A stretch of DNA of 64,000 nt from a virus, in IMG/VR virus record IMGVR_UViG_3300047552_000481, positions 15,081 through 79,080 of that record; one strand, written 5' to 3'. The translations under genes and the position numbers were made by a program. Position 1 is the stretch's first letter. The number at the start of each line of letters is the position of its first letter. The notes under the pieces are model-generated. The model did not search any database. It saw nothing but the letters and a program-made list of their open reading frames with translations, and was not told the DNA's origin. Shown here piece after piece: positions 15,133 through 44,121 of this stretch.

Positions 15133-15425
15133 GTATTGTTGGTCTAAAATTAGTTACTGGTGAAGATATCGTTGCTGAAAGTATGGAAACCCTAAATTAT
15201 TATAAAAATCCAGTTCAGGTTGCAATTGTTCCAAATCGAACTGGACAAACACAAGCAATGTTTGTGCCATTTCCACAATTAGCAAAATCTTCATCGAGTC
15301 GAGAAATATTTCTTCATGATTCTTTTGTTATTTGTAAATATGATGTTGACTTGGAGGTAGAAAACCAGTATAATTCAATGTTTGGATCTGGTCTAGTTGT
15401 TCCTCCAAAGGGGTCATTTATCTAG
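15129..15425 (+). CDS. Conserved T4-like small protein upstream of gene 43
   Basis: LKLVTGEDIVA..YNSMFGSGLVVP. Confidence 0.75.
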   Translation: MSIVGLKLVTGEDIVAESMETLNYYKNPVQVAIVPNRTGQTQAMFVPFPQLAKSSSSREIFLHDSFVICKYDVDLEVENQYNSMFGSGLVVPPKGSFI

Positions 15426-15433
15426 GAGACGAA

Positions 15434-24119: not shown

Positions 24120-24875
24120 ATGTCAGAATTAGTAACTATTGTAACAGCAACTACTGCAACAGATTATTTAAAGAGAAATATTGAATCTGTTCAGAAGCAA
24201 ACATACACAAATTTTCAACATTTAATTTTTATTGATGGGATTATTGGTGGTCCAAAGAACTTATCAAGAGTTCAAGAAATGATTTCGAATATGGCATTAA
24301 AAAATGTAGATTTTATTCCTCTTCCATATTCAGTAGGTCATTCAGGGTGGAATGGTCATAGAATGTATATGGCAGCATTAGCCCTGGCATCCGATAAAGC
24401 AGAATATATTTGTTTTCTAGATGAAGATAACTACATTGATGAAGATCATATTGAATCATTATATAAAGTAATAAAGAACGGTAATGAATATGCATTTTCA
24501 CTGAGAAAAATTGTTGATAAGGATGGAAACTTCGTTGTAAATGATGATTGTGAAAGTCTAGGATTATGGCATAGTATTTTACATCCAGAAGATTATTTTA
24601 TTGATTTGAATTGTTTCTTTCTCAAGAGATTATTAGCAAATCAATTGGCACCAATATTTTATAGGAAAGCGCGTGATCCTAATATGCAACCAGAAATTGA
24701 TCGAGCTTTATCACAAGTGTTGAGACAGAATAATCTCAAATATGATACTAATTATAAGTATACACTAAATTATACAGCAGGAAATACACAGAAGTCGGTA
24801 CAGAAAGAATTTTTCCTAAATGGAAATCAACAGATGTTGGTGAAATATAATGGATCATTACCATGGGTAAAATAA
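24120..24875 (+). CDS. Glycosyltransferase family 2
   Basis: VTIVT..IESVQKQTY..IFIDG..CFLDEDN. Confidence 0.85.
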   Translation: MSELVTIVTATTATDYLKRNIESVQKQTYTNFQHLIFIDGIIGGPKNLSRVQEMISNMALKNVDFIPLPYSVGHSGWNGHRMYMAALALASDKAEYICFLDEDNYIDEDHIESLYKVIKNGNEYAFSLRKIVDKDGNFVVNDDCESLGLWHSILHPEDYFIDLNCFFLKRLLANQLAPIFYRKARDPNMQPEIDRALSQVLRQNNLKYDTNYKYTLNYTAGNTQKSVQKEFFLNGNQQMLVKYNGSLPWVK

Positions 24876-25193
24876 ATGAATATTGTAAGTTATAAAATTG
24901 CATATAAATTATTAAATAAAAGAAAGGATAATTCGTTGGGACCATTATTTATTAATAAGAAACAACGGATACCAATTGGAATTTTATTAAAGGCAGAACC
25001 ACACAAAACGAAAGGATTTGCATTTAGACCGGGCTGGCATTGCACATCAAATCCTATTGCTCCTCATTTAAAAATGAATAATAGAGTTTGGACTAAAGTT
25101 ATAATCTCAGATTTTGAAGAAATTAAACGACCACAAAATCAAGGAGGAATTTGGTACATTGCTAATTACATGCAAATATTAGAAATTTTATAA
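24876..25193 (+). CDS. Hypothetical phage protein
   Basis: GFAFRPGWH, QGGIWY motifs. Confidence 0.65.
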   Translation: MNIVSYKIAYKLLNKRKDNSLGPLFINKKQRIPIGILLKAEPHKTKGFAFRPGWHCTSNPIAPHLKMNNRVWTKVIISDFEEIKRPQNQGGIWYIANYMQILEIL

Positions 25194-25380
25194 GGAAGTT
25201 AAATGGACACGATTCCGCTCAAATGTTTAATTTGTATAGAAGAGATATTGAATATTAGATATAATACGAGTTTGGAAGATAGTATCAAAAGACAATATTT
25301 TGCCTCGGAGCATTTTCGAATGATATTTGAAATAGCTTTGAAAGAAGCTTGTAAGAAAATTTATGAAGTGGTACCAAAAG

Positions 25381-25725
25381 ATGATTATAGTATCTGAAGA
25401 TGAATTCGTTAAGAATTTAAAATTAAAATTGAAAGGTGTTTCAGTAAAATCTGTTACAGGACCGGGGAGAAGTGGTGCCGTCGCATCTGTATTTTCATCA
25501 CATATTCTGAGGATTCCTTTCATTCCATACGGGCAAACATGTCCTGATAATTTACGACCACTATTGGTTGTTGATACCGCTAAACAATCTGGTGTAACAT
25601 TAAGGAAAGCACAAAAGAAATATGGTCCAAATTCTGTTGTCATAAATATTTACGACGAACCTCCACGGGTTAAATTCTGGTACGAATTTTTGGGTGAACA
25701 ATATGAAAGTAGCAATTCTCAATAA
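25381..25725 (+). CDS. Small phosphoribosyltransferase-like protein
   Basis: GPGRSG and LLVVDTAKQSGVTL resembling a PRPP-binding loop. Confidence 0.55.
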   Translation: MIIVSEDEFVKNLKLKLKGVSVKSVTGPGRSGAVASVFSSHILRIPFIPYGQTCPDNLRPLLVVDTAKQSGVTLRKAQKKYGPNSVVINIYDEPPRVKFWYEFLGEQYESSNSQ

Positions 25726-26635
25726 CTGGTGTAATGACGAACAATTCTTCATTTACAAACTTCTCAAACAACTATTCCCCGTTGAATTAACGAATGATCC
25801 AATCAATTGTGACATTCTAATTCATTCTGTATTTGGGTTTGATGAATCCTATAAACACACAAAAGCAAAATTTAAAATCTTAACCTCTTGGGAAACCAGA
25901 TTTTACATTGATATATTCAATGAACGTCTCCCATATTCTGATATAGTAATTTCATATCACCCAACTAAAAATAATTTCTATAGATTACCACTTTGGTATC
26001 AATGGATCGATTGGTGGAATGAAAATTCATCTGATCAAGTGACAACGGTTTGTGGTCAATCACATCATTATATTGGTGGAAATACTCTTCCGAATCATCT
26101 TGTCCCAACACCCTTAAATATAAGGAAAAATATTTATACTGCTCCCTCGGTCAGAAAAAGACCAAACTTTTGTGCGATGTTAGTTGGTAACATGGAACCA
26201 GAATGTGTTGCTCCCAGACAAGAAATTTATAATGAATTATCCAAGAATATTGATGTTGTATCTGGGTTTGGTCTAGCATTTCAAAACAGATTTGAAGGAA
26301 ATAAGATTGAATTATTAACCAGATTCAAAGCAAACTGCTGTTATGAAAATTCTATACATCGTGGGTATACGACAGAAAAAATTCTAGATGCCATATTCGC
26401 TGGATGTTTACCTATATATTCTGGTGATCCAGAATATTCTAAAATCGACTTTAACCAAAAACGATTTTTAAATAGACAAGATTATTCTTCCACAGCAGAA
26501 TTTGTTAAAGAAGTAAAATCAGTCATGGAAGATAAATTTGAATTTGATGATATAATCAATCAACCAATGTTCACAGATAACCAAATTCCAAACCTAGACG
26601 GTATATATCAATTTTTAGAGGATAAAATAAAATGA
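25703..26635 (+). CDS. Glycosyltransferase family 10 (alpha-1,3-fucosyltransferase-like)
   Basis: FKANCCYENS..GYTTEKILDA..AGCLPIYSG; RLPLW. Confidence 0.85.
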   Translation: MKVAILNNWCNDEQFFIYKLLKQLFPVELTNDPINCDILIHSVFGFDESYKHTKAKFKILTSWETRFYIDIFNERLPYSDIVISYHPTKNNFYRLPLWYQWIDWWNENSSDQVTTVCGQSHHYIGGNTLPNHLVPTPLNIRKNIYTAPSVRKRPNFCAMLVGNMEPECVAPRQEIYNELSKNIDVVSGFGLAFQNRFEGNKIELLTRFKANCCYENSIHRGYTTEKILDAIFAGCLPIYSGDPEYSKIDFNQKRFLNRQDYSSTAEFVKEVKSVMEDKFEFDDIINQPMFTDNQIPNLDGIYQFLEDKIK

Positions 26636-27609
26636 AAATTTGTTTCCATGTTAATAACTTGTCAATCAGGGGTACCACAACCGCCATTATAGATTACGGG
26701 ACATATAATGAAACGTTACTGAACAATACTTCAATTATCGCATATCACAAAAATCTATTGGATGAACTTCGTGATGAAAATTTTGTTATGCGGGAAGAAG
26801 TGGCAAAAATGTTCAAAGACAAATTTGATGTGATTGAATACACCGATAAAGGTAATCTATTAAATGAATTAAAGAAACGTGAATGTGAATATATCCATTA
26901 TCTGAAAGCCGGATTCAAAGATGATGATTTCTTGTTTGGTGTAAAGAATCTGATCCAGTGTGTATTCTCACATTTGGAGCCACACGGGCACAAATATTGT
27001 TACATTTCAGAATGGTTATCTAACGAAGCTTCTGGTGGCGAATATCCATTTGTTCCCCATATTGTTACATTACCTACAGAACAAACTGAAAATTGGCGAT
27101 TAAAATTAGGAATTCCAAATGATAAGATTGTTGTGGGTCGTCATGGTGGATTTCATCAATTCAGTATACCCTTTGTAAAAGACATTATCAATTTTGTGGC
27201 ACATTCAGATGAAAAATTTAGATTTGTTTTCGTTAATACTGAAAAATTTACAGATCATCCTAATGTTATCTTTTGTGATCCTATTATTAGTCCGCAAGAT
27301 AAGACCAATTTTATTTTAGCATCCGATGCGATGATACACGCCAGACCGGATGGTGAATCATTCGGGCTTAGTATAGCGGAAGGATTATTTCACAATAAGC
27401 CAGTTTTCACTTGTGGATTAGGAAGAGACAAAAATAACATAGAGCTTGTAAAAGGCTACGATCTGTGTTATAATAACCAGTACGAGTTGTTGGATATGAT
27501 TTTCAGGCTAAAATATGGGCATCATAAATATCAATATAATTATGCTGTGAAGGAATTTAGCCCAGAAAATGTGATGAAGAAATTTGAAGAGGTATTTTTA
27601 AATGAATAA
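26632..27609 (+). CDS. GT-B (GT4-like) glycosyltransferase
   Basis: RGTT.A..DY, GRHGG, HARPDGESFGLSIAE. Confidence 0.85.
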   Translation: MKICFHVNNLSIRGTTTAIIDYGTYNETLLNNTSIIAYHKNLLDELRDENFVMREEVAKMFKDKFDVIEYTDKGNLLNELKKRECEYIHYLKAGFKDDDFLFGVKNLIQCVFSHLEPHGHKYCYISEWLSNEASGGEYPFVPHIVTLPTEQTENWRLKLGIPNDKIVVGRHGGFHQFSIPFVKDIINFVAHSDEKFRFVFVNTEKFTDHPNVIFCDPIISPQDKTNFILASDAMIHARPDGESFGLSIAEGLFHNKPVFTCGLGRDKNNIELVKGYDLCYNNQYELLDMIFRLKYGHHKYQYNYAVKEFSPENVMKKFEEVFLNE

Positions 27610-28336
27610 AGATTATGATATTTACGTAATGCATTATACTCCGCATGAGTCTAGACGAAAACTCATGTATAATATTTTACAGAAAGAAAACTGTGATAAA
27701 GAAGTGATTTTCATTGAATCTTATGATGGCGAAGAAGTTACTTATGAAGATTACTTAAAGCATTTCAAAGCAGATACATTAGAATGGCAGAATCGCGGTT
27801 ATAAAAAATTTTGGCCACATTACCCATTAAAGAAACAAGAAGTATCGTTAGCCTTAAAACATGTTACTGCTATGCGGATATTTTTGGAATCGGATAAGGA
27901 TATTGCATTATTTCTAGAAGATGATGCAATTCTGGATGAAGGGTTCTTTACTAAATTAGATAAGCATCTTGATACATTAAATACTTATTTTGATGTGGCA
28001 TTTATTGGTCGGGGGTGTAAACCAAGTATAAGTAATGTAGAAGGTTGGCATTTTAACCTGGAAGATAGAAATACTGATTCAATGATAATGAGTCGAAAAT
28101 TTGTAACTAAATTTTTAGACTATGTTGACACAATTCGCATGTGTTTTCCCATTGATCACGAGTTGAATTATTTTATTGGGTATTGTAGATGTAATGTTTA
28201 TTGGTTAGAACCACCAATTGTAACACAAGGAAGTCATCTTGGAATTTTTGATTCGTTTCAAGATGCACATTCTAAATTTAATGATAAAACATTACCAGTT
28301 CGATCTGATCTAAATGAATTGATGGAGCAAATATGA
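27602..28336 (+). CDS. Glycosyltransferase family 25-like
   Basis: RR..M, SLALKH, FLEDDA, PIDHEL, VTQGS. Confidence 0.8.
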   Translation: MNKDYDIYVMHYTPHESRRKLMYNILQKENCDKEVIFIESYDGEEVTYEDYLKHFKADTLEWQNRGYKKFWPHYPLKKQEVSLALKHVTAMRIFLESDKDIALFLEDDAILDEGFFTKLDKHLDTLNTYFDVAFIGRGCKPSISNVEGWHFNLEDRNTDSMIMSRKFVTKFLDYVDTIRMCFPIDHELNYFIGYCRCNVYWLEPPIVTQGSHLGIFDSFQDAHSKFNDKTLPVRSDLNELMEQI

Positions 28337-29079
28337 AATATGCAATTTGTTATCGAGGTATCTCGTTTATTGAGAATTATTCTCATAAAGATGATATTCC
28401 TTCATACACGATAGATTTCGCTAATACAATTCCATTCAACAGGAAATATTTAATTGATCCTTTATTGGAACGTGGGGATGAAGTAGATATCTTTTTCAAC
28501 ACATATGATTCAGAGAAATTTGATTATTTTGAAAAAGAAATGAATCCTGTTGCGGTTAGAACAAGTGTATTTGACAATAATATCAAATATTGTAATTGGC
28601 CTAACATCTGGCAAATTTCAATTGATACTATGGAAATGGTTGATAGTCATCAAAAAGTATCAGGAAAGTGGTATGATTATATCATTTTGTTTAGATATGA
28701 TCTAATCCCATATATGGATTTTTCAAAGATCTTTATTCCAATGGATGCTGTTTCGTGTCCAAGTCCACAAGATGATATGTTTACTGTTATCCCTGGCTAT
28801 CTACTAAGTGATGTATTACATTTATTCAAAGAGTTCAAGTATTCTGGCATGATACATAATTATACAGCCATATTAAGTCATTTTGGAATTAAATGTCATA
28901 CCATGTTTACGAAAGATTTTGACAGAGATTCATATCCATTTTTTAGGAATACTAGACATATCTTTGTTCCAGAAGATCATCCATATTATGAACACAAAAT
29001 TGAAGACATTTTTGATCCTAACCATAAAAAATATGGACTGAAATATGAGGCACACGATAAATTCGTCTCTTGTGTATAA
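28333..29079 (+). CDS. Putative glycosyltransferase (paralog of 32050 and 33419)
   Basis: K.AI...G, D.F..TY, YD.II..R.DL, DD.F. Confidence 0.55.
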   Translation: MKYAICYRGISFIENYSHKDDIPSYTIDFANTIPFNRKYLIDPLLERGDEVDIFFNTYDSEKFDYFEKEMNPVAVRTSVFDNNIKYCNWPNIWQISIDTMEMVDSHQKVSGKWYDYIILFRYDLIPYMDFSKIFIPMDAVSCPSPQDDMFTVIPGYLLSDVLHLFKEFKYSGMIHNYTAILSHFGIKCHTMFTKDFDRDSYPFFRNTRHIFVPEDHPYYEHKIEDIFDPNHKKYGLKYEAHDKFVSCV

Positions 29080-29088
29080 GGAGAACAT

Positions 29089-30465
29089 ATGAATAAACTT
29101 ATTATATTCGATTTGGATGGTGTTTTGGTAGAATCGAAAGAGTGGCATTTCTACAGTTTAAATGATGCATTAGAGAAGGTTGATCCAAAGTATATGATAT
29201 CGTATGATGAACATTTATCAACATATGATGGATTGAACACAACCAAGAAACTAAAAATTCTAACACAGAACAAAGGTTTAGATCCAAAATATTATGATCA
29301 AGTTTGGCAAGACAAGCAGACTGCAACATTTGAAATTTTAAAAACAATTAAACCAAATCAAAAGAACATATCTATTTTCAAGGAATTGCGAAGTCGAGGA
29401 TACAAAATTGCTGTCGCATCCAATTCAATTAGAGAATCATTAAAGTTAATGATTTTAAATATGGGATTGATGGAATATACCGATTTGTGTATTTCCAATG
29501 AAGATGTTTCCAGAACAAAACCTTATCCAGAAATGTATTGGAAATGTATGACATTATTGAATGCATTACCCAAGAATACAATTATCATAGAAGATTCCCA
29601 TCTGGGCAGACAAGGTGCATTAGATTCTGGTGCCCATTTATTGGCAATTGAAAATGTTGACGATTTAAGTTTAAGCAAGATTTTACGAAAAATAGGTGAG
29701 GTTGAGAATATGGATCATAAAGATGTACCTTGGATTGATAATAAATTAAATGTATTAATTCCTATGGCCGGGAGAGGATCTAGATTTGAGCAGGCAGGAT
29801 ATACATTTCCCAAACCATTAATTGATGTTCGTGGAAAACCAATGATCAAAATGGTTGTTGATAACCTTAACATTCAAGCTAATTATATTTTCTTGGTATT
29901 AAAGGAACATATTGAGAAATATAATGTTGATTATATGTTACGATTGATGGTTCCTAATTGTAAGATTGTTGTTGTAGACCAAGTAACAGAAGGTTCCGCT
30001 TGTACAGTTTTATTAGCAAAAGATCTAATTGATAATGATAATCCTTTACTAATGGCAAATTCAGATCAGTTTTTGGTCTGGAATTCTAATGAAATACTTT
30101 ACGCTTTCAAGAATGATTCCATCGATGGTGGTATGGTAACATTTGAGAATTCAAGTCCAAAATGGTCATTTGCTAAATTAGATGAAAAGGGTTTCATTTC
30201 AGAAGTAGCAGAAAAGCGACCAATCTCAGATCACGCCAATACTGGCGTGATGTATTATAGAAAGGGGTCAGATTTTGTAAAATATGCAGAACAGATGATT
30301 GAAAAGAATATTCGTGTGAATGGTGAATTTTACACAACACCAGTAATGAATGAAGCTATCGCCGATGGTAAACTATTCAAAATCAAGCATATTGAACAAT
30401 TTTGGGGAACTGGAACACCAGAAGATTTAGATTCATTCTTAAGAGATTATAAAGGTAAGGTATGA
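29089..30465 (+). CDS. HAD phosphatase fused to sugar-phosphate nucleotidyltransferase
   Basis: FDLDGVL, KPYPE, IEDS; then PMAGRGSRF..PKPLI, NSDQ, AEK, GTPEDL. Confidence 0.9.
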   Translation: MNKLIIFDLDGVLVESKEWHFYSLNDALEKVDPKYMISYDEHLSTYDGLNTTKKLKILTQNKGLDPKYYDQVWQDKQTATFEILKTIKPNQKNISIFKELRSRGYKIAVASNSIRESLKLMILNMGLMEYTDLCISNEDVSRTKPYPEMYWKCMTLLNALPKNTIIIEDSHLGRQGALDSGAHLLAIENVDDLSLSKILRKIGEVENMDHKDVPWIDNKLNVLIPMAGRGSRFEQAGYTFPKPLIDVRGKPMIKMVVDNLNIQANYIFLVLKEHIEKYNVDYMLRLMVPNCKIVVVDQVTEGSACTVLLAKDLIDNDNPLLMANSDQFLVWNSNEILYAFKNDSIDGGMVTFENSSPKWSFAKLDEKGFISEVAEKRPISDHANTGVMYYRKGSDFVKYAEQMIEKNIRVNGEFYTTPVMNEAIADGKLFKIKHIEQFWGTGTPEDLDSFLRDYKGKV

Positions 30466-31262
30466 TCACATTAGTAACAATTTTTTATGACATAGGTAGA
30501 AAGGATTGGGGCAATTTTACTAGGAGTGTTGAAGAATATTTAACTGCCTTTACATTTTTCTTACATTATGATTATAAGATGATTGTTTTCATTGATGACA
30601 GATATCACGATAAGTTCATTGATTATTGTGGTGGAAGATTACACGAGAACATTAAAGTAATTAGAATCAATAGAGATTGGTTAAATAATAACATTTGGGC
30701 ATGGTCTAAATATAAAAAAGAAAAGGAGATTATGGGGTCTGAAACATATAGAAAAATCATTCCAGAACGAATTGCATTAAATTATCCAGAGAACACTAGA
30801 CCAGAATATACTATTTTAACTCATTCTAAAATTGATCTGGTTAATTATGTCATTGATAATAATCTAACAGAAGATGAATATGTTGGGTTTGTTGATTTTG
30901 GGTATTTTCATGACAAGACTGATCAGAGATATGTTCCCAGAGATACATTAGATATTAATAAGTTTGATTTGGATCGTGTAAATGTTTGCGCTGTTAATCC
31001 TATTAACAAGCAGGATAAGAATATTACTTGGACATTAATTAACGCACCAGAAAAGTTAGCAGCATATTTTTTCCTTGGTAATAGAGAAAATCTTAAGAAG
31101 TTTCAAGAGTTGGCACACAAATGGTTAGAAATCTTCCAGAATAAAAATATTGCCGACGATGAACAACATTTATGGTTACAATGTTATTTTGAGAATCCGG
31201 AATTATTTAGAGTATGGGCATTTGGTTATTGGCATCAAGCATTGAGGCATTTTAGTAAATGA
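30462..31262 (+). CDS. HtrL/YibB (WlaTC)-like glycosyltransferase
   Basis: TLVT.FYDIGR..W, HSK, VDFG, DDEQ. Confidence 0.75.
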   Translation: MITLVTIFYDIGRKDWGNFTRSVEEYLTAFTFFLHYDYKMIVFIDDRYHDKFIDYCGGRLHENIKVIRINRDWLNNNIWAWSKYKKEKEIMGSETYRKIIPERIALNYPENTRPEYTILTHSKIDLVNYVIDNNLTEDEYVGFVDFGYFHDKTDQRYVPRDTLDINKFDLDRVNVCAVNPINKQDKNITWTLINAPEKLAAYFFLGNRENLKKFQELAHKWLEIFQNKNIADDEQHLWLQCYFENPELFRVWAFGYWHQALRHFSK

Positions 31263-32065
31263 ACATTACATTTTTCATAACCCATAAAACGTTAGGTGTA
31301 GAGCATCTTGATTGTTGTTTTAAAAGTTTATCTAACCAATCATTATTATCAGCACCTATTTTTGATAAGTTATATATTTATAATACTCATGAAGACGAAT
31401 TATCTAATGAATTGATATTAGAGTATTATTACTTATATTGTTTAGATCGAATGTTTGGTGGTGTTGAGATATTTCCTTATGACAGCAATACTCATAAATC
31501 ATTGGGAGCAGATGTTAATGCCATCAAAGAATTTTGTCTAAATAACTTTGATGGACAAGATAGGGTTCTGATTTTAAAGTCCGATTGTCTTTTATCTAAA
31601 AATTACTTTAAAACGATTTTATCAACAAATCAAAGGGTTAGGGGAAATGTATATTTTGTGGCACCATTTATTTGTGCGAAACAGCGAGTTCCTAATGATG
31701 AAATATTTCAGTATTTGAATCGAGACAAAGTAGTATTTTCTGACGATATTACATTTTTTGTGGAAGATCAGTATCAGAGTATTAATACTGATTTCAACAA
31801 CAGAGACATTGATATTCTAAGTGAACAAATCAAATTTACATCTTGTTATGTAATTAGAGATTTCTCATGCCACTATTTCAATGTTGGTTTATTTCCTAAT
31901 ATAACTATTCAATATCAAAGTTGGGGTGGTGTTAATTTTTCAGAATTGATTCCTCATTTTGTTAGGACCGAAGATTGTTTTGTTATTCACAAATATCATT
32001 CTATCTTATCGGAAAATAGAAATACTGATAGAGAAGGACCGGTTAAGGCGTGGTTAGAAAGTTGA
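31259..32065 (+). CDS. Putative GT-A-like protein
   Basis: Island context; N-terminal beta strand FFITH, LKSD, HKYH. Confidence 0.45.
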   Translation: MNITFFITHKTLGVEHLDCCFKSLSNQSLLSAPIFDKLYIYNTHEDELSNELILEYYYLYCLDRMFGGVEIFPYDSNTHKSLGADVNAIKEFCLNNFDGQDRVLILKSDCLLSKNYFKTILSTNQRVRGNVYFVAPFICAKQRVPNDEIFQYLNRDKVVFSDDITFFVEDQYQSINTDFNNRDIDILSEQIKFTSCYVIRDFSCHYFNVGLFPNITIQYQSWGGVNFSELIPHFVRTEDCFVIHKYHSILSENRNTDREGPVKAWLES

Positions 32066-32706
32066 AAATAGCAGTATTATTGCCGGGTCATATCAGAGCC
32101 TGGGATTATTGTAAGCAAAATTTTATGGATACAATCTATGATAATACTCATCAAATAGATGTTTTCATTGATACTTATAATGATATATTTAGGAATGATT
32201 ATCAATTACATAAAGAAAATGAGATGGGTATAATTAAGGATGATTCTGAGGTATTATCATTATTTGAAGGAATTAATGTTGTTGATTTTAAGATTGAGAA
32301 TCAAATTCCTGGTGATGCTGAACAGATGCAGATTAGGAAGATATTAAAGAACGTCGAGACATATGAAAATTATGAACAAATGAATGGATTATATGATTTA
32401 GTTATAAAGAGTAGATGTGATATATTATTGGATGAGAAATTGGATTATGAAGAGATTCATAGGAATTGTGTAGAATCGAGGTTGATATATATTGGTACTG
32501 GTGCTGTACATATGCGAGAAAACGATATGTTTGCAATATGTAATAGTGAAACATTTAAATTTTATGGTAAAAGATTTTTAGATTTTCCAACGATTCATAG
32601 GAGTATGAATGAAATAGAATTGAAATATAATGTTTCATATTCACAAACAATTGGAATATCTATTGTACGATTAGATGGTAACAAAAACTATACGGTGTTC
32701 AAATGA
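32050..32706 (+). CDS. Putative glycosyltransferase (paralog family)
   Basis: KIAVLLPGHIR, DVFIDTY, YDLVIKSRCD, NDMF. Confidence 0.6.
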   Translation: MVRKLKIAVLLPGHIRAWDYCKQNFMDTIYDNTHQIDVFIDTYNDIFRNDYQLHKENEMGIIKDDSEVLSLFEGINVVDFKIENQIPGDAEQMQIRKILKNVETYENYEQMNGLYDLVIKSRCDILLDEKLDYEEIHRNCVESRLIYIGTGAVHMRENDMFAICNSETFKFYGKRFLDFPTIHRSMNEIELKYNVSYSQTIGISIVRLDGNKNYTVFK

Positions 32707-33422
32707 CAAATTTATATAACAGTAGTGGAAAAATTGATAGAGATCAAGACATTTATGATGCATTTAATGATTTTATATTTTCCACAGACAGGAACATATT
32801 TAATAAGATGTGGGCAAAAATGTATTTCTATGAAATGACAAAAGATTTACATGGAGATATAGTTGAATGTGGAGTATTTAAAGGTTCTGGCATGTCGGTT
32901 TGGTTGAAATTATTAGATATGTATGAACCTAATAGTATAAAAAAAGTAATTGGGTTTGATATGTTTGATCCTGGGTTTGTTGATAATTTAGAAGATATAG
33001 AAAAACATACGATGCAACAGGTATTTGATAGATGCAATATTGATTATGATGATGTATCATTGGAAACCATTAACAATAGATTATTAAATGCGGAATTTAA
33101 ACATGATAAATTTGAATTAGTAAAGGGCGATGTTTCATTTACAACTGAAGAATTTGTTGTTTCTCGTCCTGGTGCAAAAATTAGTATTTTATATCTTGAT
33201 TTAGATTTAGAAGAACCAACATATAATGTATTATATAATTTGTGGGATCGAGTTGTTCCGGGTGGTGTAATTGTATTTGATGAATATTGTTATCACAAAT
33301 GGACAGAAACGGCAGCAGCAGATAATTTTTTATCATATTTAGATTTCAAATATATAAAGGAAAATGGTTTTAAATTAAGCAAATTAAATATTAAATCACC
33401 AACAGCGTATATAATCAAATGA
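32703..33422 (+). CDS. TylF/MycF-family sugar O-methyltransferase
   Basis: GDIVECGVFKG, GFDMF, LVKGD, LDLD, GGVIVFDEY. Confidence 0.9.
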   Translation: MTNLYNSSGKIDRDQDIYDAFNDFIFSTDRNIFNKMWAKMYFYEMTKDLHGDIVECGVFKGSGMSVWLKLLDMYEPNSIKKVIGFDMFDPGFVDNLEDIEKHTMQQVFDRCNIDYDDVSLETINNRLLNAEFKHDKFELVKGDVSFTTEEFVVSRPGAKISILYLDLDLEEPTYNVLYNLWDRVVPGGVIVFDEYCYHKWTETAAADNFLSYLDFKYIKENGFKLSKLNIKSPTAYIIK

Positions 33423-34099
33423 AAGTAGCAATCATATATAACGGAAATGTAAGAACATTAGAACAAACGATAGATAACAATATCGAGAAATTTGAATTTT
33501 TGAATCCTGATTATTTTGCTTCAACATATCTCCACAAATATGGTTATCATCCTGCCGTCCAAACTTCAACAGGATTCTTTACAGATGAAGAATTAACAAT
33601 AGAACAGGTATATGCCCAATATGAAAAATTAAATACGAAAGACATTTTAATTGATAGAATTCAGGACATGACAACATTTTATGAATCTGAACAACATAAG
33701 ATCAACCCAAATATGAATCATGTGTCATCATATCTTCAATATGTCAAACTTAAGACTGGTCTAAAGATGATTAAAAATTATGATGTCATTATTAAAACCA
33801 GATGTGATTTGTTATTAAATAATATATCTCACATTAATTTCGATAATATTGATAACAAGTTAATTGTTGATAAGGGCAACATATTTCCTAATGATTGTAT
33901 TTTCATGACATCTACTGAAAAGATGTATAAACTAGCCGATTTCATGGTTAATGAATTTTATAATTTAACAGATGTTGAAAGTTCAACTAATCCTCCACAC
34001 GGTTTATTATGTTCTGCTTGTAGACATCTAAATTTAGAGATTGAACAACATCACATCATTGATTGTGTTATTCGAGCCAATACGAGGATATATCTATGA
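33419..34099 (+). CDS. Putative glycosyltransferase (paralog family)
   Basis: KVAIIYNGNVR, DYFASTY, YDVIIKTRCD, PND. Confidence 0.6.
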   Translation: MKVAIIYNGNVRTLEQTIDNNIEKFEFLNPDYFASTYLHKYGYHPAVQTSTGFFTDEELTIEQVYAQYEKLNTKDILIDRIQDMTTFYESEQHKINPNMNHVSSYLQYVKLKTGLKMIKNYDVIIKTRCDLLLNNISHINFDNIDNKLIVDKGNIFPNDCIFMTSTEKMYKLADFMVNEFYNLTDVESSTNPPHGLLCSACRHLNLEIEQHHIIDCVIRANTRIYL

Positions 34100-34761
34100 A
34101 ATATTACAGTCAATATGATCAAGATAAAATTGTGAATGAACATTTCTTCCATAATAATAAGAATGGAATCTTTGTTGATATTGGCGCACACGATGGTAAA
34201 TTCTTAAGTAACACATATTTCTTTGAAAAATATCTAGATTGGACCGGAATTTGCGTAGAACCAAATCCAGAGGTATATCAAACACTCATTGAAAATAGAA
34301 AATCTAAATGTTATAATATTGGATTAAATGATGTCCCAGGAAAGGTTTTGTTTCAACAAAATTCTGGTTATACAGAAACATTAAGCGGTATTGTTAATCA
34401 ATTTGAAGAAGAACATGTTCAGCGAATAGAAAATGAAAATCTAGAACACAATTTAATCCCAAATTACATAGAAATTGAATGCGATACTCTCAATAATATA
34501 TTAGAATATTGTAATATAAATACTATTGATTACATGAGTATAGATACAGAAGGCTCCGAATATAACATATTAAAGAACTTTGATTTTGACAAGTATCACG
34601 TAAACGTATTAGATGTTGAGATAAATTACTTTATGTCCGAAAAGGCACAGAACATTTTTGAATTATTGAAAAACAGGTTTGGTCGTATTATACGGGTAAG
34701 ACAAGATATCATTTTTATAAACAACGATTTGAGATATTCATATGAAACTAATTGCACATAG
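34096..34761 (+). CDS. FkbM-family methyltransferase
   Basis: YSQYDQD, FVDIGAHDG..SNT, VEPNP, IDTEGSE. Confidence 0.9.
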   Translation: MKYYSQYDQDKIVNEHFFHNNKNGIFVDIGAHDGKFLSNTYFFEKYLDWTGICVEPNPEVYQTLIENRKSKCYNIGLNDVPGKVLFQQNSGYTETLSGIVNQFEEEHVQRIENENLEHNLIPNYIEIECDTLNNILEYCNINTIDYMSIDTEGSEYNILKNFDFDKYHVNVLDVEINYFMSEKAQNIFELLKNRFGRIIRVRQDIIFINNDLRYSYETNCT

Positions 34762-35200
34762 AGGAAATGTATCTGGAGCAAATCCAGAATTAGAGAATTC
34801 TCCACAACAAATTGATTATTGTATCATGAAAGGTTTTGATGTTGAAATTGACGTTTGGTATATAGATAGAAAGTTTTATCTTGGCCATGATACATATCAA
34901 TATGAAGTATCACTTTCATATTTAAGTGAAAGATCAAAATATCTATGGATGCATTGTAAGAATTTATTGGCGTTACGAGAGTTTCAACACACATGGTTTA
35001 ATTATTTTTGGCACCAAAAAGATGATTACACATTAACTTCTCTGGGATATATCTGGACATATCCTGGGCTAAATTATTTTACTAATTCAAGACAAGTATT
35101 ATTAGATTTTTCTGAAATGTCAGATAAAAAACTAGAATATTATGAAAGTCTTGGTGTTTATGGTTTATGTTCAGATTATGTAAATTATAAATACTTATAA
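34742..35200 (+). CDS. Glycerophosphodiester phosphodiesterase-like protein (short form)
   Basis: IAHRGN, EN.P, VEIDV, LGHD, HCKN, CSD. Confidence 0.8.
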   Translation: MKLIAHRGNVSGANPELENSPQQIDYCIMKGFDVEIDVWYIDRKFYLGHDTYQYEVSLSYLSERSKYLWMHCKNLLALREFQHTWFNYFWHQKDDYTLTSLGYIWTYPGLNYFTNSRQVLLDFSEMSDKKLEYYESLGVYGLCSDYVNYKYL

Positions 35201-35220: not shown

Positions 35221-35976
35221 ATGTTAAATTCAATTTTTTTAGTAGGTGGGCCTGGGTCTGGTAAAAATATATTACTAGATACCATTAAAAAATATAATTT
35301 TAAAGAAATTACATTAGATAGTATCAATTCTAACTTAGATAAGTTAACTGAGAATTATATTATCAATTGTAATGCATATGCTTATGATAAAATTATAGAA
35401 ACCAATAATATATTATTAGATAATAACTATAACACATCAATGATTTTTGTTGATGTGAATGAGAATACAGTTAAAAACAGAACTTTCGGTAGATTGATAT
35501 CTGAAGATATTTATCAGAAAAAATATATTCAATCTAAAGAAAACTTATATAAATTTTATGATTTGTTTGAGAATTTTATCAGATATGATAATAATAATGA
35601 TTTATCTGAACAGGACTTTTCTGATGTAGAAAAATTTATTATTGAAGTATTATCATTAAGTAATATAAAAGCTTTTGTTAAGAAATTGAAAGCTAAAGGG
35701 GAAAACATTAGACCATCTAAAATTAATTATAGATCTTCAAATACTACTAGATCTAAATTAAATAAGACGGTTCAACCAGATGAAGATTTAATCAATAATG
35801 TTAAGCAAAGTATAAAAGTATCAGAAAATGCTGAACCATCGGTTTCAAATGTATCTATGATTGGTGTAGAAGGCGGCGGATTTAAACAAGAAGAACCTAT
35901 TCAATCTAAGAGTTATAGTTGTAAACCAACAAGAAAAACTTGGAAACGTGCCAAGAAAATCTTATTCAAAGGGTAA
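35221..35976 (+). CDS. P-loop NTPase/kinase-like late protein
   Basis: FLVGGPGSGK Walker A, MIFVD..R. Confidence 0.65.
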   Translation: MLNSIFLVGGPGSGKNILLDTIKKYNFKEITLDSINSNLDKLTENYIINCNAYAYDKIIETNNILLDNNYNTSMIFVDVNENTVKNRTFGRLISEDIYQKKYIQSKENLYKFYDLFENFIRYDNNNDLSEQDFSDVEKFIIEVLSLSNIKAFVKKLKAKGENIRPSKINYRSSNTTRSKLNKTVQPDEDLINNVKQSIKVSENAEPSVSNVSMIGVEGGGFKQEEPIQSKSYSCKPTRKTWKRAKKILFKG

Positions 35977-36953: not shown

Positions 36954-36961
36954 TATAAATA
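36954..36961 (+). promoter_or_regulatory. T4 late promoter
   Basis: Intergenic TATAAATA. Confidence 0.75.
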
Positions 36962-36994
36962 GTAATATATCAACCACTTTTATAGGACACGACA

Positions 36995-37783
36995 ATGGCA
37001 ACATGGGGCAGACGAGATTTCGCAAATAACAAACCAACATTTCCTGTAGAACGGGAAGTTCGAACCACAATTAAAATAGCAACCAACAGAGCAGCAAACG
37101 TTGCAACTTCTAACGTAACAATATTTTTTGCTAATACCGCAAATTTAGTAGCAGGAATGTTTGTTTCTGGCAACAATGTTCCAACCACAGCAAATGCAGG
37201 ATTCTTTAAGAGTAATGTATCTATTGTAACTGTTAATTTATCAAATGTTGTTATTTCAAGAGCATTAACAGCTAATACTTCTGTTGGTGATGTTTTTACA
37301 TTTGACACATTAATTCCATATAAAGCTAATACTGTTGCAACATCTTACAATGCAAATACATATCTTGTAACTAAAACTCGTATTGCTAATACCCAAGGAA
37401 TTGGAAATAAAGTTGCTACAGATGGTTGGGTTCATGTTGAACAAGGTAAAGGGCATATTGCCAATTTATCAGTATCAAATGTAGTATCAACATTAACCTA
37501 TTCTAATGCTTATTTAGCATTTTCAACCACAGGCGAAGTTGCGGCTAATGCTCAAATTAGGGTAAGTGGAACATCAAATGTTTCTATCCAAATCAATTAT
37601 CAGGGTAGAGGATATGTTAATATTCCAACGGTTTCTGCAACTGGCGCAAATAATGGTAACTTAATTTTCACTGTAACTCCTGGTGGACGTTTAGGTAGAA
37701 CTCAATGTGAAACATTAGTAGCACTTTCTAATGCTGTAGCACTTTCTGCAACATCTGGTGGGCCATATTTCCCAGGATTATAA
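36995..37783 (+). CDS. Probable virion structural protein, Asn/Thr/Ser/Ala-rich
   Basis: Late promoter; MATWG..D start, GWV, R...ETLVAL typical of T4-like structural proteins. Confidence 0.7.
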   Translation: MATWGRRDFANNKPTFPVEREVRTTIKIATNRAANVATSNVTIFFANTANLVAGMFVSGNNVPTTANAGFFKSNVSIVTVNLSNVVISRALTANTSVGDVFTFDTLIPYKANTVATSYNANTYLVTKTRIANTQGIGNKVATDGWVHVEQGKGHIANLSVSNVVSTLTYSNAYLAFSTTGEVAANAQIRVSGTSNVSIQINYQGRGYVNIPTVSATGANNGNLIFTVTPGGRLGRTQCETLVALSNAVALSATSGGPYFPGL

Positions 37784-38163
37784 TGAAAACATATAAACAA
37801 TTGTTATCTGAATTACATAATATTCAACCTATTCATAATGATACTAATAAATCAGATACCATTTCAGAAATGAATAAGAACTTGCATCTTTCATTAGATG
37901 CAAGTTTCCAACACGTTTCAGAAGCCTTGATTAAAGTAAAGAAAACATTATCTATGTATGGTATTCAATTACCACAATTAGATATTAATGAAGGCTCAAG
38001 TGGTTCTACTAGTGTGGTTGTGTCTAAATTTGATTCGTCTGGGGAAAATCACAAAAATGTGACTGCCCCCGGAGAAGAAAAAGCAAATAAACTTAAATTT
38101 AGTTTTTCTTATAAACTAACAGACGGACATTATAACTGTAGGGCATCTATTACTAAAGCATAA
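37783..38163 (+). CDS. Late protein with capsid-targeting-like N-terminus
   Basis: MKTYKQLLSE resembles T4 internal-protein leader MKTYQEFIAE. Confidence 0.6.
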   Translation: MKTYKQLLSELHNIQPIHNDTNKSDTISEMNKNLHLSLDASFQHVSEALIKVKKTLSMYGIQLPQLDINEGSSGSTSVVVSKFDSSGENHKNVTAPGEEKANKLKFSFSYKLTDGHYNCRASITKA

Positions 38164-38549
38164 TGTTGAACAATTTAACCCATGAGAATTTTATTTTGTT
38201 TGCGGCAAATAACTATATTTCGCCCCATTATATCGAAAGTGAATTTTTTACTGACTTAAAGAAATTTAAGTATATTAAAAGATTGATAAATAAGTATAAT
38301 ACAACAGGTGATTTGAAATGTAGATTGCTACTGAACCATATTATTATGGTGTACAATGTCTTCAATACCGAAGCATGTACAAAAATGCTTTTTTTAAAGA
38401 ATAATGAAATAGATTATGTTATATTGAAAACATTTTTAGTATATTTGAATTATATGCCAGATCTTATAAAAGGTGTAAACGGGAAAGATATAATATCATC
38501 TGATATAGGTTTAGATTTCAACGTAGTTAACATATTAAGAGAAATATGA
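38163..38549 (+). CDS. Conserved T4-like hypothetical protein
   Basis: NFILFA..Y..P..EF..DLK.FKYIKRL..RLLLNH. Confidence 0.8.
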   Translation: MLNNLTHENFILFAANNYISPHYIESEFFTDLKKFKYIKRLINKYNTTGDLKCRLLLNHIIMVYNVFNTEACTKMLFLKNNEIDYVILKTFLVYLNYMPDLIKGVNGKDIISSDIGLDFNVVNILREI

Positions 38550-38713
38550 TATTCAAAGATTTTAGAAAAAAACTTAAAGAAGATTTTGCTGGAACCGGAG
38601 TTTCTGGTGTCGCTGGCATTGGTGTTCCTGTAAATGGGGATAAAGCCCAAGCCGAACCAGGAGGTAAAGCAGCAAAAATGACTTTATTAAAAAGAAAAAA
38701 GAGGATCAAATGA
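38546..38713 (+). CDS. Small conserved late protein (55 aa, not in ORF track)
   Basis: MIFKDFRKKLKE|DFAGTGVSGVAGIG..EPGG..KRKK; ATGA overlaps at both ends. Confidence 0.7.
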   Translation: MIFKDFRKKLKEDFAGTGVSGVAGIGVPVNGDKAQAEPGGKAAKMTLLKRKKRIK

Positions 38714-39126
38714 TTACGTTCAAAGATTTATTAGAACAGTTGCAACCACAGCAACAGAACCCTGCCAAAATTAAAGCCGCAGAATTATTTAGTAGAGTTT
38801 ATGCTGCAATTAAAGCTGGGCATACCGCACATCTAATGGCACAAAGTTTTGCTCAACATGACGCATTAAATGATTTTTATACTGGTCTAGCACCAATCTT
38901 AGATAAAGTCATGGAAAATTTCATTGGTCGTATGGGTAGATTAGAATCTGCTCCACCAAATGTAAATGAAAAATCTTTAATGCCAATAGAAATTGTTGGT
39001 AACTTAACAGCTTGGTTAGATAGTAATAGACAATTCCTTGGAGAATTTTCTGAAATTCAAAATTTAATTGATGAAATGTTATCACTTTGTAATTCAACGG
39101 CATATAAGTTACGCGAACTAAACTAA
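38710..39126 (+). CDS. Ferritin/Dps-like four-helix protein (DUF5856-like)
   Basis: H..HL..SFAQHDALNDFY..D...E..G; NLIDEM..TAYKL. Confidence 0.75.
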   Translation: MITFKDLLEQLQPQQQNPAKIKAAELFSRVYAAIKAGHTAHLMAQSFAQHDALNDFYTGLAPILDKVMENFIGRMGRLESAPPNVNEKSLMPIEIVGNLTAWLDSNRQFLGEFSEIQNLIDEMLSLCNSTAYKLRELN

Positions 39127-41785: not shown

Positions 41786-42023
41786 ATTTTTAATTCTGTT
41801 ATTGTTAACGGCTTGTACAAATACTAAAGTTGTTAATATCATTCCAGAACCACCTAAAGAATTGATGGTTCCACCAGAATCATTGCAGTTAATTGGTAAT
41901 GAGAGGAAGTTGTCTGAAATCACATATGTAATTATAAATAACTATATGACTTATCATAAAGAGTCAGAAAAATTACAAAAACTACAAGAATGGATTAAAG
42001 AACAGAAAAATGTTAAGTTTTAG
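41778..42023 (+). CDS. Outer-membrane spanin lipoprotein (Rz1-like)
   Basis: Lipobox LLTAC, Pro-rich PEPPKELMVPP, NY..Y..WI.EQK. Confidence 0.8.
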   Translation: MYKFLILLLLTACTNTKVVNIIPEPPKELMVPPESLQLIGNERKLSEITYVIINNYMTYHKESEKLQKLQEWIKEQKNVKF

Positions 42024-44121
42024 AGATTACCTTTTACTACTAGAAGATAGGATTGATTTCTTAAAGAATCAATATAAGGATAGGTTAAATACCAATCATG
42101 ATGCATTGGCGCAACATCATGATTCTGATGCAGTAATTGATCATTTTAGTCAACATGCCGATCCATCTGGTACAAAACAACATACTGATTGGATATTAAA
42201 ACAATATCAAAAGGGAAAGATTCGACAGGAAGATCATCCTAGAATTCATACAGCATTATCTAATTTTGAAAAATATAAACCAAGATTACTTAGAAAAGAT
42301 ATCAATCAATACCGGTCATTAAATGATTTAGAAGATTCTGTTCAACCACATTTGGGGAAAGCAAGTTCTGGTAAAGATCAAAAAGCATTAGATAAATCGG
42401 ATGCTGAAAAATTACATGATGAAAATGGATTTAAGGTTTACCATTTAAAATCTAGAAATGCAGCTTGTCATTATGGAAAAGGAACAAAATGGTGTACTGC
42501 TGCCGAAAACAATAATATGTTCGATCATTATAATTCTGATGGTCCAGTATATTATATTGAAGGTAAAGATAATAATGGTGAAAAAAAGAAATTTCAGTTT
42601 CATTTTGAATCAAATCAATTTATGAATGATAAAGATGAAGAAATTAATCTTGGAGAATTTATTAGGAACAACCCCGAAGTTAGAAATGTAAAAGAATTTA
42701 AAGATAAACATTTTGCATTAAAGGATATATCTAAATCTGAATTACACCATATGATTGCTACTATGCCTAGTATTGGTGATGATTTTCTTAAACATCCAAA
42801 TATTGATTCTAGACATCTTCAAAATATTATAAAACGTGGTCATCCTCCATGGTCAATATTTAATCATCCTCAGTTAACTAAAGACCAATTAATGGGATTA
42901 TATCATTCTGATCCAGAACAACATAATCACACATTAAGTCACAAATTATTTGATACCGATGTGTTGCAGAATGTGTATAATAAAGATCCTAGTAATTATT
43001 ATAATATATCTGGTATATCTATGAATCCAAATATTCCAGAAGATATAAAACGCGGTATTATGAAATCTCATCCAAATGTTATAGCGGGAGCAAATAACCC
43101 AACATTAAATTCTGATGATATTCATGATTTGTTAAATGACTCAAATACATCAATTGAAAGTATTGTTAACCTATCATACCATCCAAATTTTAATCATTCG
43201 CATGTTCAAAGATTTATAGATGGTAAACACGATCCTAATGATTTTTATCCTGATGATTATGCTACAATACTTAAAAAAGCTTCCAAAGAACAGGTTGATG
43301 ATATAATTGATAATAAGCCGCATTTAATTAATTATTTGTCTGACAAGAAATTATCAAAAGATCAATATCATAAAATAATTGATAAGTATCATAATAAGCA
43401 TTCTATTATAGAAGCTCTATTATTTTCTCCGCATTTGGATGGGACACATTTAGATAAGATAATAGATCATGGGGAATTAATACGTCCTGTATTACAACAT
43501 AACAATATAACTCCACAACATGTTATGAAAATAATTGATAATACTCCAAAATCAACGAATGACGATGTACCTTGGCATTATGATATGCCAACTCATACTA
43601 AATTACCAGAAGTTTTTGATAAATTAATTAAAAATGAAAACATAAATCCAAATGTTAAAAGACAAATAATTAAAAGAGAACCAAATGTTTCGAGAGATAC
43701 GTTATTAGATGTAATTTCTGATCCTGAATTGGCAGGTGAAGTTATGAATAAGACCGATAAACTGGAAAAAGAACATTATAGGAAATATTTTGATTTGCAC
43801 CACAAAAAGATTGGATATAATGGATTAAATATTGTTGCCGATTATGTTCATAAACACCCAGAAACAGCCAAAGAACAATTACATTTAAATCCTCATCTTG
43901 ATACAGAACTTATAGCAAAAGGACATTTATCTAATGATGAATTATACAACTATATTAATTCGGAACATAAACTCGATGATGATGGTCCAGATCCAAAAAT
44001 TCATGCTGTTCACGCATTACATGATCCAGAAAAATTAAAAGCCTTGTCAAATAATCATCCAGACGAAAAAATTAGAGCAGTAGCAAATCATTTTTCAAAA
44101 TTTTATGAAGAAAATAATTAG
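42010..44121 (+). CDS. Large His-rich probable internal head protein with helical repeats
   Basis: MLSFRDYLLLLE leader; YGKGTKWCTAA domain; many HP/NP repeats. Confidence 0.65.
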   Translation: MLSFRDYLLLLEDRIDFLKNQYKDRLNTNHDALAQHHDSDAVIDHFSQHADPSGTKQHTDWILKQYQKGKIRQEDHPRIHTALSNFEKYKPRLLRKDINQYRSLNDLEDSVQPHLGKASSGKDQKALDKSDAEKLHDENGFKVYHLKSRNAACHYGKGTKWCTAAENNNMFDHYNSDGPVYYIEGKDNNGEKKKFQFHFESNQFMNDKDEEINLGEFIRNNPEVRNVKEFKDKHFALKDISKSELHHMIATMPSIGDDFLKHPNIDSRHLQNIIKRGHPPWSIFNHPQLTKDQLMGLYHSDPEQHNHTLSHKLFDTDVLQNVYNKDPSNYYNISGISMNPNIPEDIKRGIMKSHPNVIAGANNPTLNSDDIHDLLNDSNTSIESIVNLSYHPNFNHSHVQRFIDGKHDPNDFYPDDYATILKKASKEQVDDIIDNKPHLINYLSDKKLSKDQYHKIIDKYHNKHSIIEALLFSPHLDGTHLDKIIDHGELIRPVLQHNNITPQHVMKIIDNTPKSTNDDVPWHYDMPTHTKLPEVFDKLIKNENINPNVKRQIIKREPNVSRDTLLDVISDPELAGEVMNKTDKLEKEHYRKYFDLHHKKIGYNGLNIVADYVHKHPETAKEQLHLNPHLDTELIAKGHLSNDELYNYINSEHKLDDDGPDPKIHAVHALHDPEKLKALSNNHPDEKIRAVANHFSKFYEENN

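Follow-up and report, generated by a model that had tools for sequence, protein, structure and literature searches.

We describe here P0001, a protein encoded in a 64-kb stretch of viral DNA (hereafter the window) taken from the 79-kb IMG/VR record IMGVR_UViG_3300047552_000481. Asparagine in this protein directly follows Ala, Ser or Gly far more often than its composition predicts, and the same preference runs through an unannotated family found in freshwater and marine T4-like myoviruses. Judging from sequence comparison, selection seems to maintain this dipeptide, a small residue followed by Asn, across the family. The account we favour, to which we give about even chances, is that P0001 is expressed late, serves as an accessory protein on the virion surface, and uses the small residue plus Asn as a loop or strand-cap element under selection. 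The coordinates of the ORF (open reading frame), its domains and its neighbours are collected in Table 1.

P0001 contains 30 Asn, preceded by Ala in 12 cases, Ser in 7 and Gly in 3, which reproduces exactly the 22 [ASG]-N dipeptides counted in the initial annotation of the stretch. Tripeptides include ANT and SNV (5 each), ANL, ANA, SNA and ANN (2 each) and ANV (1). Asp, which had been described as rare, occurs 4 times in the 262 aa. In 100,000 shuffles of the P0001 sequence, the dipeptide was obtained 8.25 ± 2.30 times with a maximum of 18, so that none reached the observed number and the enrichment indeed exceeds what the abundance of Ala, Ser and Gly predicts. Similarly, 18 [ASG]-N-[TVAL] tripeptides were observed, compared to 3.40 ± 1.71 in the shuffled sequences (maximum 13). 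The canonical N-x-S/T sequon was not enriched in P0001, with 6 sites for about 6 expected from composition.

We then considered trivial sources of this bias. Among the 74 ORFs of at least 100 aa on the + strand of the window, P0001 had a z score of 6.06 for [ASG]-N while the runner-up had 1.64 (mean -0.03, standard deviation 1.04), and the pooled odds in the remaining ORFs were 0.90 for A-N, 1.01 for S-N and 0.84 for G-N. Since P0001 is the sole outlier and the odds elsewhere stay between 0.84 and 1.01, a genome-wide dipeptide or codon bias is ruled out. A DNA repeat is also ruled out as the source of the motif: Tandem Repeats Finder detected no repeat in the ORF DNA, and the codons are mixed (GCA/GCT/GCC, TCA/TCT/AGT or GGN, followed by AAT or AAC), in agreement with the earlier remark that the protein is not a tandem repeat. 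The spacing of the motifs along P0001 is irregular. Finally, the small residue stands before Asn 22 times and after it 6 times. Because the bias is directional, a patchy regional composition bringing Asn and small residues together was excluded.

Searches with P0001 retrieved 34 close homologues and 556 cluster representatives at E <= 1e-3. The family includes long forms (about 260-280 aa), short forms (about 170 aa) without residues ~17-118, and members in which the core domain is present in an additional copy. All of them retain the N-terminal MSxWGNTDxxNxxPKF and the C-terminal TVTPGGRLGRxQxETLVALS…SGGPYFPG. The z score for [ASG]-N was positive in all 73 homologues carried by viral contigs, ranging from 1.0 to 4.4, and exceeded 2 in 56% of 180 family proteins. 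Pooled odds for Ala-Asn were 2.4 to 2.9 (2.86 over the small members), and the corresponding pooled values for the small members were 1.32 times expectation for Asn-Ala, 1.37 for Ser-Asn and 1.05 for Gly-Asn. Thr is the commonest residue following Ala-Asn (29%). Over the whole family Asn amounts to 10.4% and Asp to 2.7% of residues, and N-x-S/T is again not enriched (732 sites for 687 expected).

Eight to ten motif positions are kept in 50-76% of 131 relatives (N11, N74, N94, N112, N132, N171, N185, N219 and N246). One could therefore ask whether the excess reflects the inheritance of a few conserved sites. This is ruled out, since the bias also appears at non-conserved columns, defined as alignment columns with under 25% Asn (1,232 Asn cases). 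At these columns Ala stands before Asn in 25.3% of cases, before Ser, Thr, Gln or Val in 10-11% and before Asp, Lys or Glu in 4-6%, while Ala makes up 11.6% of the family sequences. The variable columns in which Ala-Asn occurs number 113. P0001 alone has 12 Asn at columns of this kind, of which 9 are preceded by Ala, Ser or Gly (binomial p 8e-4). The family counts come from related sequences and, because these share ancestry, are not independent events. The enrichment is a protein-level, family-wide and directional one, as expected if the motif is selected, which the initial annotation had proposed.

Giant phage proteins of 1,000-3,500 aa contain 5-25 copies of the segment corresponding to residues 153-230 of P0001, and a Baseplate_wedge match was obtained for one of them. 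These giant proteins carry the core domain without enrichment (z -3.3 to 0.5), which rules out that the motif is simply a property of the core fold.

An AlphaFold2 model of P0001 built with 132 sequences (predicted local distance difference test (pLDDT) 94.7, predicted template modelling score (pTM) 0.83) comprises a barrel, a linker, a beta-sandwich and a loose tail. The N-terminal peptide is retained in the short forms, such as P0011-P0017 (about 170 aa), from which the barrel is absent. In a VIA-align search the best match of the barrel was the tail-tube insertion domain of phage Mystique (9n71_B, Z 9.0, root-mean-square deviation 2.5 over 72 aa), followed with Z 7.9-5.5 by phage Bridgette, the JBD30 baseplate, the tail tip of phage Chi, the P22 I-domain (6.2) and T5 pb9 (5.5), scores that stand as fold-level evidence only given that Z 7-8 is a typical best value even for unrelated models. 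Capsid, tube and baseplate proteins have insertion or decoration domains of this same fold. The P22 I-domain, the Mystique insertion and T5 pb9 are optional outward add-ons, like the P0001 barrel; unlike them, the latter has no detectable sequence relation to these domains and lies within a free-standing small protein. The core modelled alone (pLDDT 91) had no PDB match better than that to the outer domain of T4 gp18, at Z 4.5. Foldseek retrieved nothing from the PDB at E <= 1e-3 with either the whole model or the core. Matches in BFVD were a short-form homologue (E 3.6e-8) and then baseplate-wedge and fibre proteins.

In this model the 22 motif Asn are distributed over coil (13), strands (4) and short helices (5). 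The N-terminal edge of a strand is occupied by nine of the motifs, compared to about 5 expected, and in the barrel an Asn is found beside almost every strand. The linker N132, conserved in 99 of 130 sequences, ends the helix 127-132; altogether 24 residues are helical. The motif Asn are thus placed, for the most part, in loops or at the ends of strands. The initial annotation had named buried Asn ladders of a beta-helix as the structure that would speak against its proposal. Such a beta-helix or solenoid is ruled out by the barrel and sandwich fold, by the lack of repeat and by the coil location of 13 of the 22 Asn.

A T4-type late promoter box, TATAAATA, precedes P0001. The exact box was found within 80 nt upstream of the homologue at 15 of 70 loci, compared to 2.7% of 1,388 background genes. 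Of the 14 closest relatives, 12 carry it, and most of the others have a one-off variant (CATAAATA, AATAAATA). The number of TATAAATA boxes in the AT-rich window is not significant (20 found for 15.6 expected); because the box alone is not significant, the argument for late expression rests on its position and conservation. The composition of P0001 points in the direction of a particle protein: charged residues account for 10% of it, compared to 22-35% of neighbouring proteins.

A related arrangement was found in the cyanophage S-RIM8 (143209-153499, L076), where two cytidylyltransferase genes, a hypothetical protein, gp187, a 'head protein' (301 aa), DUF7207, small genes and the primase follow each other. 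Because S-RIM8 has the same layout, the cassette beside sugar genes is older than the freshwater clade. The head protein SXDG_00166 is a 'virion structural protein' in UniRef. Like P0001, the cyanophage head protein (S-RIM8, S-RIM50; 260-303 aa) occupies this slot, starts with M-[SA]-x-[WF]-G-x-x-D and has a matching G-W motif; unlike P0001, it is Asp-rich and Asn-poor (7.7% compared to 3.1%). From its sequence, it appears to end in an Ig-like domain.

Since the record from which the window is taken has no structural module of its own, capsid and tail proteins were analysed in relatives. We scanned three complete relatives, G002, G004 and G005 (162-168 kb, with terminal repeats), for [ASG]-N. 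Among 199 ORFs of G002 the top outliers were a 216-aa protein of unknown function encoded beside the baseplate genes (z 4.3), the capsid protein gp23 (3.6) and a baseplate wedge subunit (3.4), followed by a tail protein (2.5), a 1,939-aa structural protein (2.4) and the P0001 homologue (2.3). The gp23 proteins of seven relatives (L078-L082, L101 and L102) had z scores of 2.2-3.7, whereas gp23 of T4 (-1.9), KVP40 (-0.5), Aeromonas phage 31.2 (-1.2) and Acinetobacter phage ZZ1 (-0.4) showed no excess. Scores for Cba120 (1.1), a Campylobacter phage (1.8), S-RIM8 (0.9) and phiN3 (2.6) were also obtained. Twenty-two T4 virion proteins, taken together, had an observed/expected ratio of 1.04, which rules out that the motif is a general trait of T4-type virions; the T4 long fibres had z scores of 1.3, -0.7, 1.2 and 0.6.

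Within gp23 the excess is localized. In the region aligned to T4 residues 155-265, 25 of the relatives' 31 Asn follow Ala, Ser or Gly, compared to 0 of 3 in T4 and 1 of 5 in KVP40, and these sites fall mostly at lineage-specific columns. Over the first 154 positions, cleaved propeptide included, there was no excess. The I-domain of gp23 forms surface protrusions and is connected by a linker at 132-160 (PMC9546572). We take the 155-265 region as this surface I-domain because it comes directly after the linker.

In related phages the strongest cases are found in fibres. Low-charge fibre-like proteins of about 1,100 aa in G005 (102971-106225, L103-L111) and G004 (14048-17368, L112-L120) have Ala-Asn z scores above 10, with 64 of 114 and 69 of 119 Asn, respectively, following Ala. 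Their motifs (QANTA, QANVG, HANGA) are heptad-spaced, at intervals of 7 and 14, and probably correspond to coiled-coil Asn layers of fibres. The dipeptide, often as A-N-T, is thus shared with the Asn layers (Q-A-N-x-A) of trimeric coiled-coil fibres, which shows that Ala-Asn can arise purely structurally. P0001 differs from these fibres in being predicted all-beta with short helices only; heptad-spaced A-N in helices does not occur in this beta-rich model with irregular motif spacing. Ala-Asn z scores of T4 gp34 and gp36 are 2.6 and 2.4, and to our knowledge T4 virions are not glycosylated. Since coiled-coil fibres and these T4 proteins show it, an Ala-Asn excess is not in itself a sign of glycosylation.

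From these data we infer a virion location for P0001 and a structural rather than chemical role of its motif. The protein would be all-beta and low in charge, decorating the head or the tail of a T4-like myovirus from fresh water. Its N-terminal peptide and beta-sandwich core, with the GGRxGRxxxETLVA C-terminal element, probably dock it to the particle, and the optional barrel would face outward. Within the [Ala/Ser]-Asn-[Thr/Val/Ala] motifs, which are mostly located in loops or where strands end, Asn and not Asp would be the turn or cap residue. The label 'structural protein' in the initial annotation is plausible, on the indirect grounds of the late promoter, the low charge, the virion-type folds and the head-protein slot of S-RIM8. 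The family is newly described, yet of a known kind, that of phage particle accessory proteins.

Several observations weigh against this account. No family was found for P0001 in Pfam and PHROGs searches and no solved homologue by a PDB profile search, and the hhalign link to the cyanophage head protein was not significant (E 0.067, probability < 1%). A structural role explains poorly why Ala-Asn recurs at non-conserved columns (25%, compared to about 10% when another polar residue takes the place of Asn), and leaves unexplained that giant proteins sharing the core show no enrichment. It likewise leaves unexplained the contrast between unbiased T4 virion proteins and the enriched gp23 of seven relatives. 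As for the known T4 decoration proteins Hoc and Soc, P0001 gave no Pfam or PHROG match and neither protein was among the fold-search matches, lists that a distant kinship could escape. Even with a structural motif, the analysis defines a widespread unannotated late family of 556 representative clusters, in a conserved cassette with capsid-targeted proteins, and provides a simple sequence signature that distinguishes the clade's virion surface proteins from their T4 counterparts.

The initial annotation proposed instead that the motifs are acceptor sites. Under this reading, which we consider unlikely although important if true, Ala/Ser-Asn-x would be the target of a putative cytoplasmic N-glycosylation and the enzymes encoded by the neighbouring sugar island would build a glycan coat, perhaps on the capsid too, as for chlorovirus Vp54. 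The island announced in the initial annotation is real, as judged by Pfam. Its products, encoded within 24120-34761, include four or more glycosyltransferase-type proteins, a nucleotide-sugar activation function and two methyltransferases of sugar type; the GT2 and GT25 genes were also matched by six-frame searches. The closest solved relative of the GT2-like protein encoded at 24120-24875 is GalT1 (5HEA; E 2e-6, residues 3-124), which belongs to a pathway of protein O-glycosylation in bacteria. In most of the 73 related contigs with enough upstream sequence, the cassette is directly preceded by a sugar island, and in S-RIM8 cytidylyltransferases take this place. Islands of relatives encode NAD-epimerases/dehydratases, a DegT aminotransferase, GT2, short-chain dehydrogenases, a dehydroquinate-synthase-like enzyme, methyltransferases and a 2-oxoglutarate (2OG) oxygenase.

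The behaviour of the motif is compatible with acceptor sites: it is directional and Asn-specific, turns over between lineages as sequons do, is mostly placed in loops of a fold that is not a beta-helix, and reappears in the presumed I-domain of gp23 in seven relatives while gp23 of T4, KVP40, 31.2 and ZZ1 is unenriched. This last contrast, however, amounts effectively to one deep phylogenetic split. In G002, GT2 and GT25 genes stand within the fibre/baseplate module beside motif-rich proteins. No member of the ThyA/dCMP-hydroxymethylase family (PF00303) was found in the 79-kb record (G000) or in the relatives G002-G005 (99-100% complete). Because the four complete relatives lack such an enzyme, transfer of sugar to hydroxymethylated DNA is an unlikely use of the island.

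The comparison with Vp54 is less favourable. Asn glycosylated in Vp54 lie in N-T-x-T or N-I-P-G contexts, and chlorovirus N-glycosylation is cytoplasmic and independent of the host pathway, with the Asn-transferase still missing (PMC9614988). The window shares with the PBCV-1 Vp54 system virus-encoded glycosyltransferases and sugar methyltransferases, and Asn in non-canonical contexts, often N-T; Vp54 is on the virion surface, where the location of P0001 is inferred. The proposed likeness of the contexts themselves was not borne out. Vp54 has NTGT, NTET, NTAT and NIPG, whereas the five ANT sites of P0001 read NTAN, NTSV, NTVA, NTYL and NTQG: none has the NTxT form, and NIPG does not occur. Furthermore, Vp54 has 4 sites in 437 aa, compared to up to 22 putative sites in the 262 aa of P0001, and is a capsid protein with a double jelly-roll from a virus of eukaryotes. 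Its glycosylation is proven; that of P0001 is putative.

Other results also argue against acceptor sites. N-x-S/T is not in excess in P0001 or its family, and within the same clade coiled-coil heptads account for the Ala-Asn excess of fibres. All four complete relatives encode glycosyltransferases, so that none of them is the glycosyltransferase-free phage that the initial annotation had called for as a control. Pfam scans of the island and neighbouring ORFs recognised no GT41 (HMW1C-like), STT3/PglB or other oligosaccharyltransferase family, several ORFs being without family. PDB sequence searches with five unknown island or neighbouring ORFs gave no match. Because several island ORFs have neither a family nor a PDB match, a divergent N-glycosyltransferase is possible. 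None of the island genes is preceded by a late-promoter box. A sigma-70 scan of the island performed no better than shuffled sequences (134 compared to 122 ± 11), and the best two + strand sites, at 23009 and 23125, give only a hint of early island transcription. Sugar islands of T4-like cyanophages are usually read as serving modification of the host envelope, which also counts against acceptor sites on the particle. In mycobacteriophages, Freeman et al. 2023 reportedly found that phage glycosyltransferases decorate capsid and tail proteins and that their genes adjoin those of the targets; this system is said to be O-linked, on C-terminal Ser/Thr-rich tails of siphovirus capsid and tail-tube proteins, and differs from the present case, where the candidate residue is Asn and the phage a T4-like myovirus.

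In its broadest form, which would be a bold and in our view rather doubtful generalization, the aquatic T4-like clade would possess its own cytoplasmic N-glycosylation acting on Asn after a small residue (Ala more than Ser), often followed by Thr or Val. The accessory protein, the surface domain of the capsid protein, the baseplate and the fibres would be coated with glycans of hypervariable islands, with sites turning over like a glycan shield. If true, the system would parallel that of chlorovirus Vp54 in a virus of bacteria; we know of no description of phage enzymes carrying out N-linked glycosylation of a tailed-phage particle. P0001 would then be a compact, expressible 262-aa substrate with up to 22 sites, next to its candidate enzymes, and the hypervariable sugar islands of aquatic T4-like phages would be explained.

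A further reading, distinctly unlikely in our judgement, is that P0001 is late but not part of the virion. It might act in assembly or lysis, be secreted or bind to the cell surface, and the motif would be a by-product of its fold. Its gene is situated in the replication/lysis region, between helicase and primase, beside the endolysin and outside the structural module; the protein has no family annotation, and its best fold matches are generic small beta domains. However, ipI and hoc of T4 are also located outside the structural block, and T4 scatters soc and further ip head genes in the same manner. Moreover, the neighbours of P0001 carry leaders resembling capsid-targeting ones, and its composition and domain kinship with baseplate and fibre proteins indicate the particle.

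It is improbable that the motif serves another Asn chemistry, such as hydroxylation or methylation, or the binding of polysaccharides on host cells or mucus as do Ig-like decoration proteins: although several relatives' islands encode 2OG-Fe(II) oxygenases and methyltransferases, and P0001 is almost uncharged, rich in Thr and Asn and endowed with a display domain resembling accessory domains of adhesive phage parts, no oxygenase was found among the Pfam matches of the window's own island, its methyltransferases are of sugar-modifying types (TylF, FkbM), and a binding surface predicts no directional rule of Ala before Asn.

Table 1. Features of the P0001 region in the window (positions are those of the window)
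Feature	Coordinates	Strand	Description
Glycan island	24120..35200	+	GT2-like, GT10, GT25, HtrL/YibB, HAD + nucleotidyltransferase fusion, TylF, FkbM and unknowns (Pfam)
P-loop (GGPGSGKN) protein	35221..35976	+	Own double TATAAATA box; conserved upstream neighbour
T4-type late promoter box TATAAATA	36954..36961	+	34 nt before the ATG, in a 45-nt intergenic gap
Late-protein ORF P0001 (proposed)	36995..37783	+	262 aa; low charge, Thr/Ala/Asn/Val-rich, 22 [A/S/G]-Asn motifs
N-terminal peptide, residues 1-17	36995..37045	+	Consensus MSxWGNTDxxNxxPKF; M1, W4 and P14 invariant or nearly so; alignments A1, A2
Optional beta-barrel, putative display domain, residues 22-108	37058..37318	+	AF2 model mba1f495e933e; 9 of 22 motifs
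Linker with short helices, residues 109-143	37319..37423	+	Conserved YNANTYLV, R-x-A-N and H-x-G-W motifs
Beta-sandwich core, residues 144-243	37424..37723	+	Near-invariant GGRxGRxxxETLVA strands
C-terminal tail, residues 244-262	37724..37780	+	LSN...NANSGGPYFPG; unstructured in the model
Downstream neighbours	37783..38549	+	126-aa MKTYKQLLSE protein, then DUF7207

The window covers the replication region of a T4-like myovirus, with DNA polymerase gp43, UvsX, helicase gp41, primase gp61, ribonucleotide reductase and ligase genes, and encodes four tRNAs. The record is about 44% complete. The GC content is 30.8%, and the DNA comes from a freshwater metagenome. The nearest cultured phages are cyanophages and the Methylophilales phage Melnitz, with a primase identity of only about 39%. 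A tblastn search of P0001 against 50,697 phage records gave zero matches, a search of the ESM Atlas returned unnamed clusters only, and a search of sequencing runs listed no RNA run with P0001, its matches being two DNA runs from one freshwater sample, which may be the source. An overlapping minus-strand ORF (36970-37308) is without support, and stops occur throughout the other frames.

The gene order around the P0001 homologue is conserved over 73 loci: a variable sugar island, 1-4 P-loop paralogues, the homologue, the MKTYKQLLSE protein and DUF7207, with endolysin and primase further on. DUF7207 is downstream of the homologue at all 73 loci. The P-loop protein has a basic tail, and its 1-4 paralogues lie directly upstream of the homologue at 71 loci; its single-linkage cluster has 232 members of 71-1,431 aa. 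In S-RIM8 the cassette also includes a 177-aa protein annotated 'major head protein', between DUF7207 and the primase. In G002, the GT2-like and GT25 genes (66836-69672 and 78778-79449, L086-L087), at 67.4, 69.3 and 79.1 kb, are on the same strand as the late tail-fibre/baseplate module that contains them, and low-charge proteins are among their neighbours, including a fibre homologue, a decoration-like protein and the 216-aa [ASG]-Asn-rich protein.

The MKTYKQLLSE start of the protein encoded immediately downstream of P0001 resembles the capsid-targeting leader of T4. Similar leaders (MKTYKQLLSE, MIFKDFRKKLKE, MITFKDLLE and MLSFRDYLLLLE) were found at the start of the late ORFs 37783-38163, 38546-38709, 38710-39126 and 42010-44121. 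One of these leader-bearing ORFs encodes a DUF5856/Dps-like protein.

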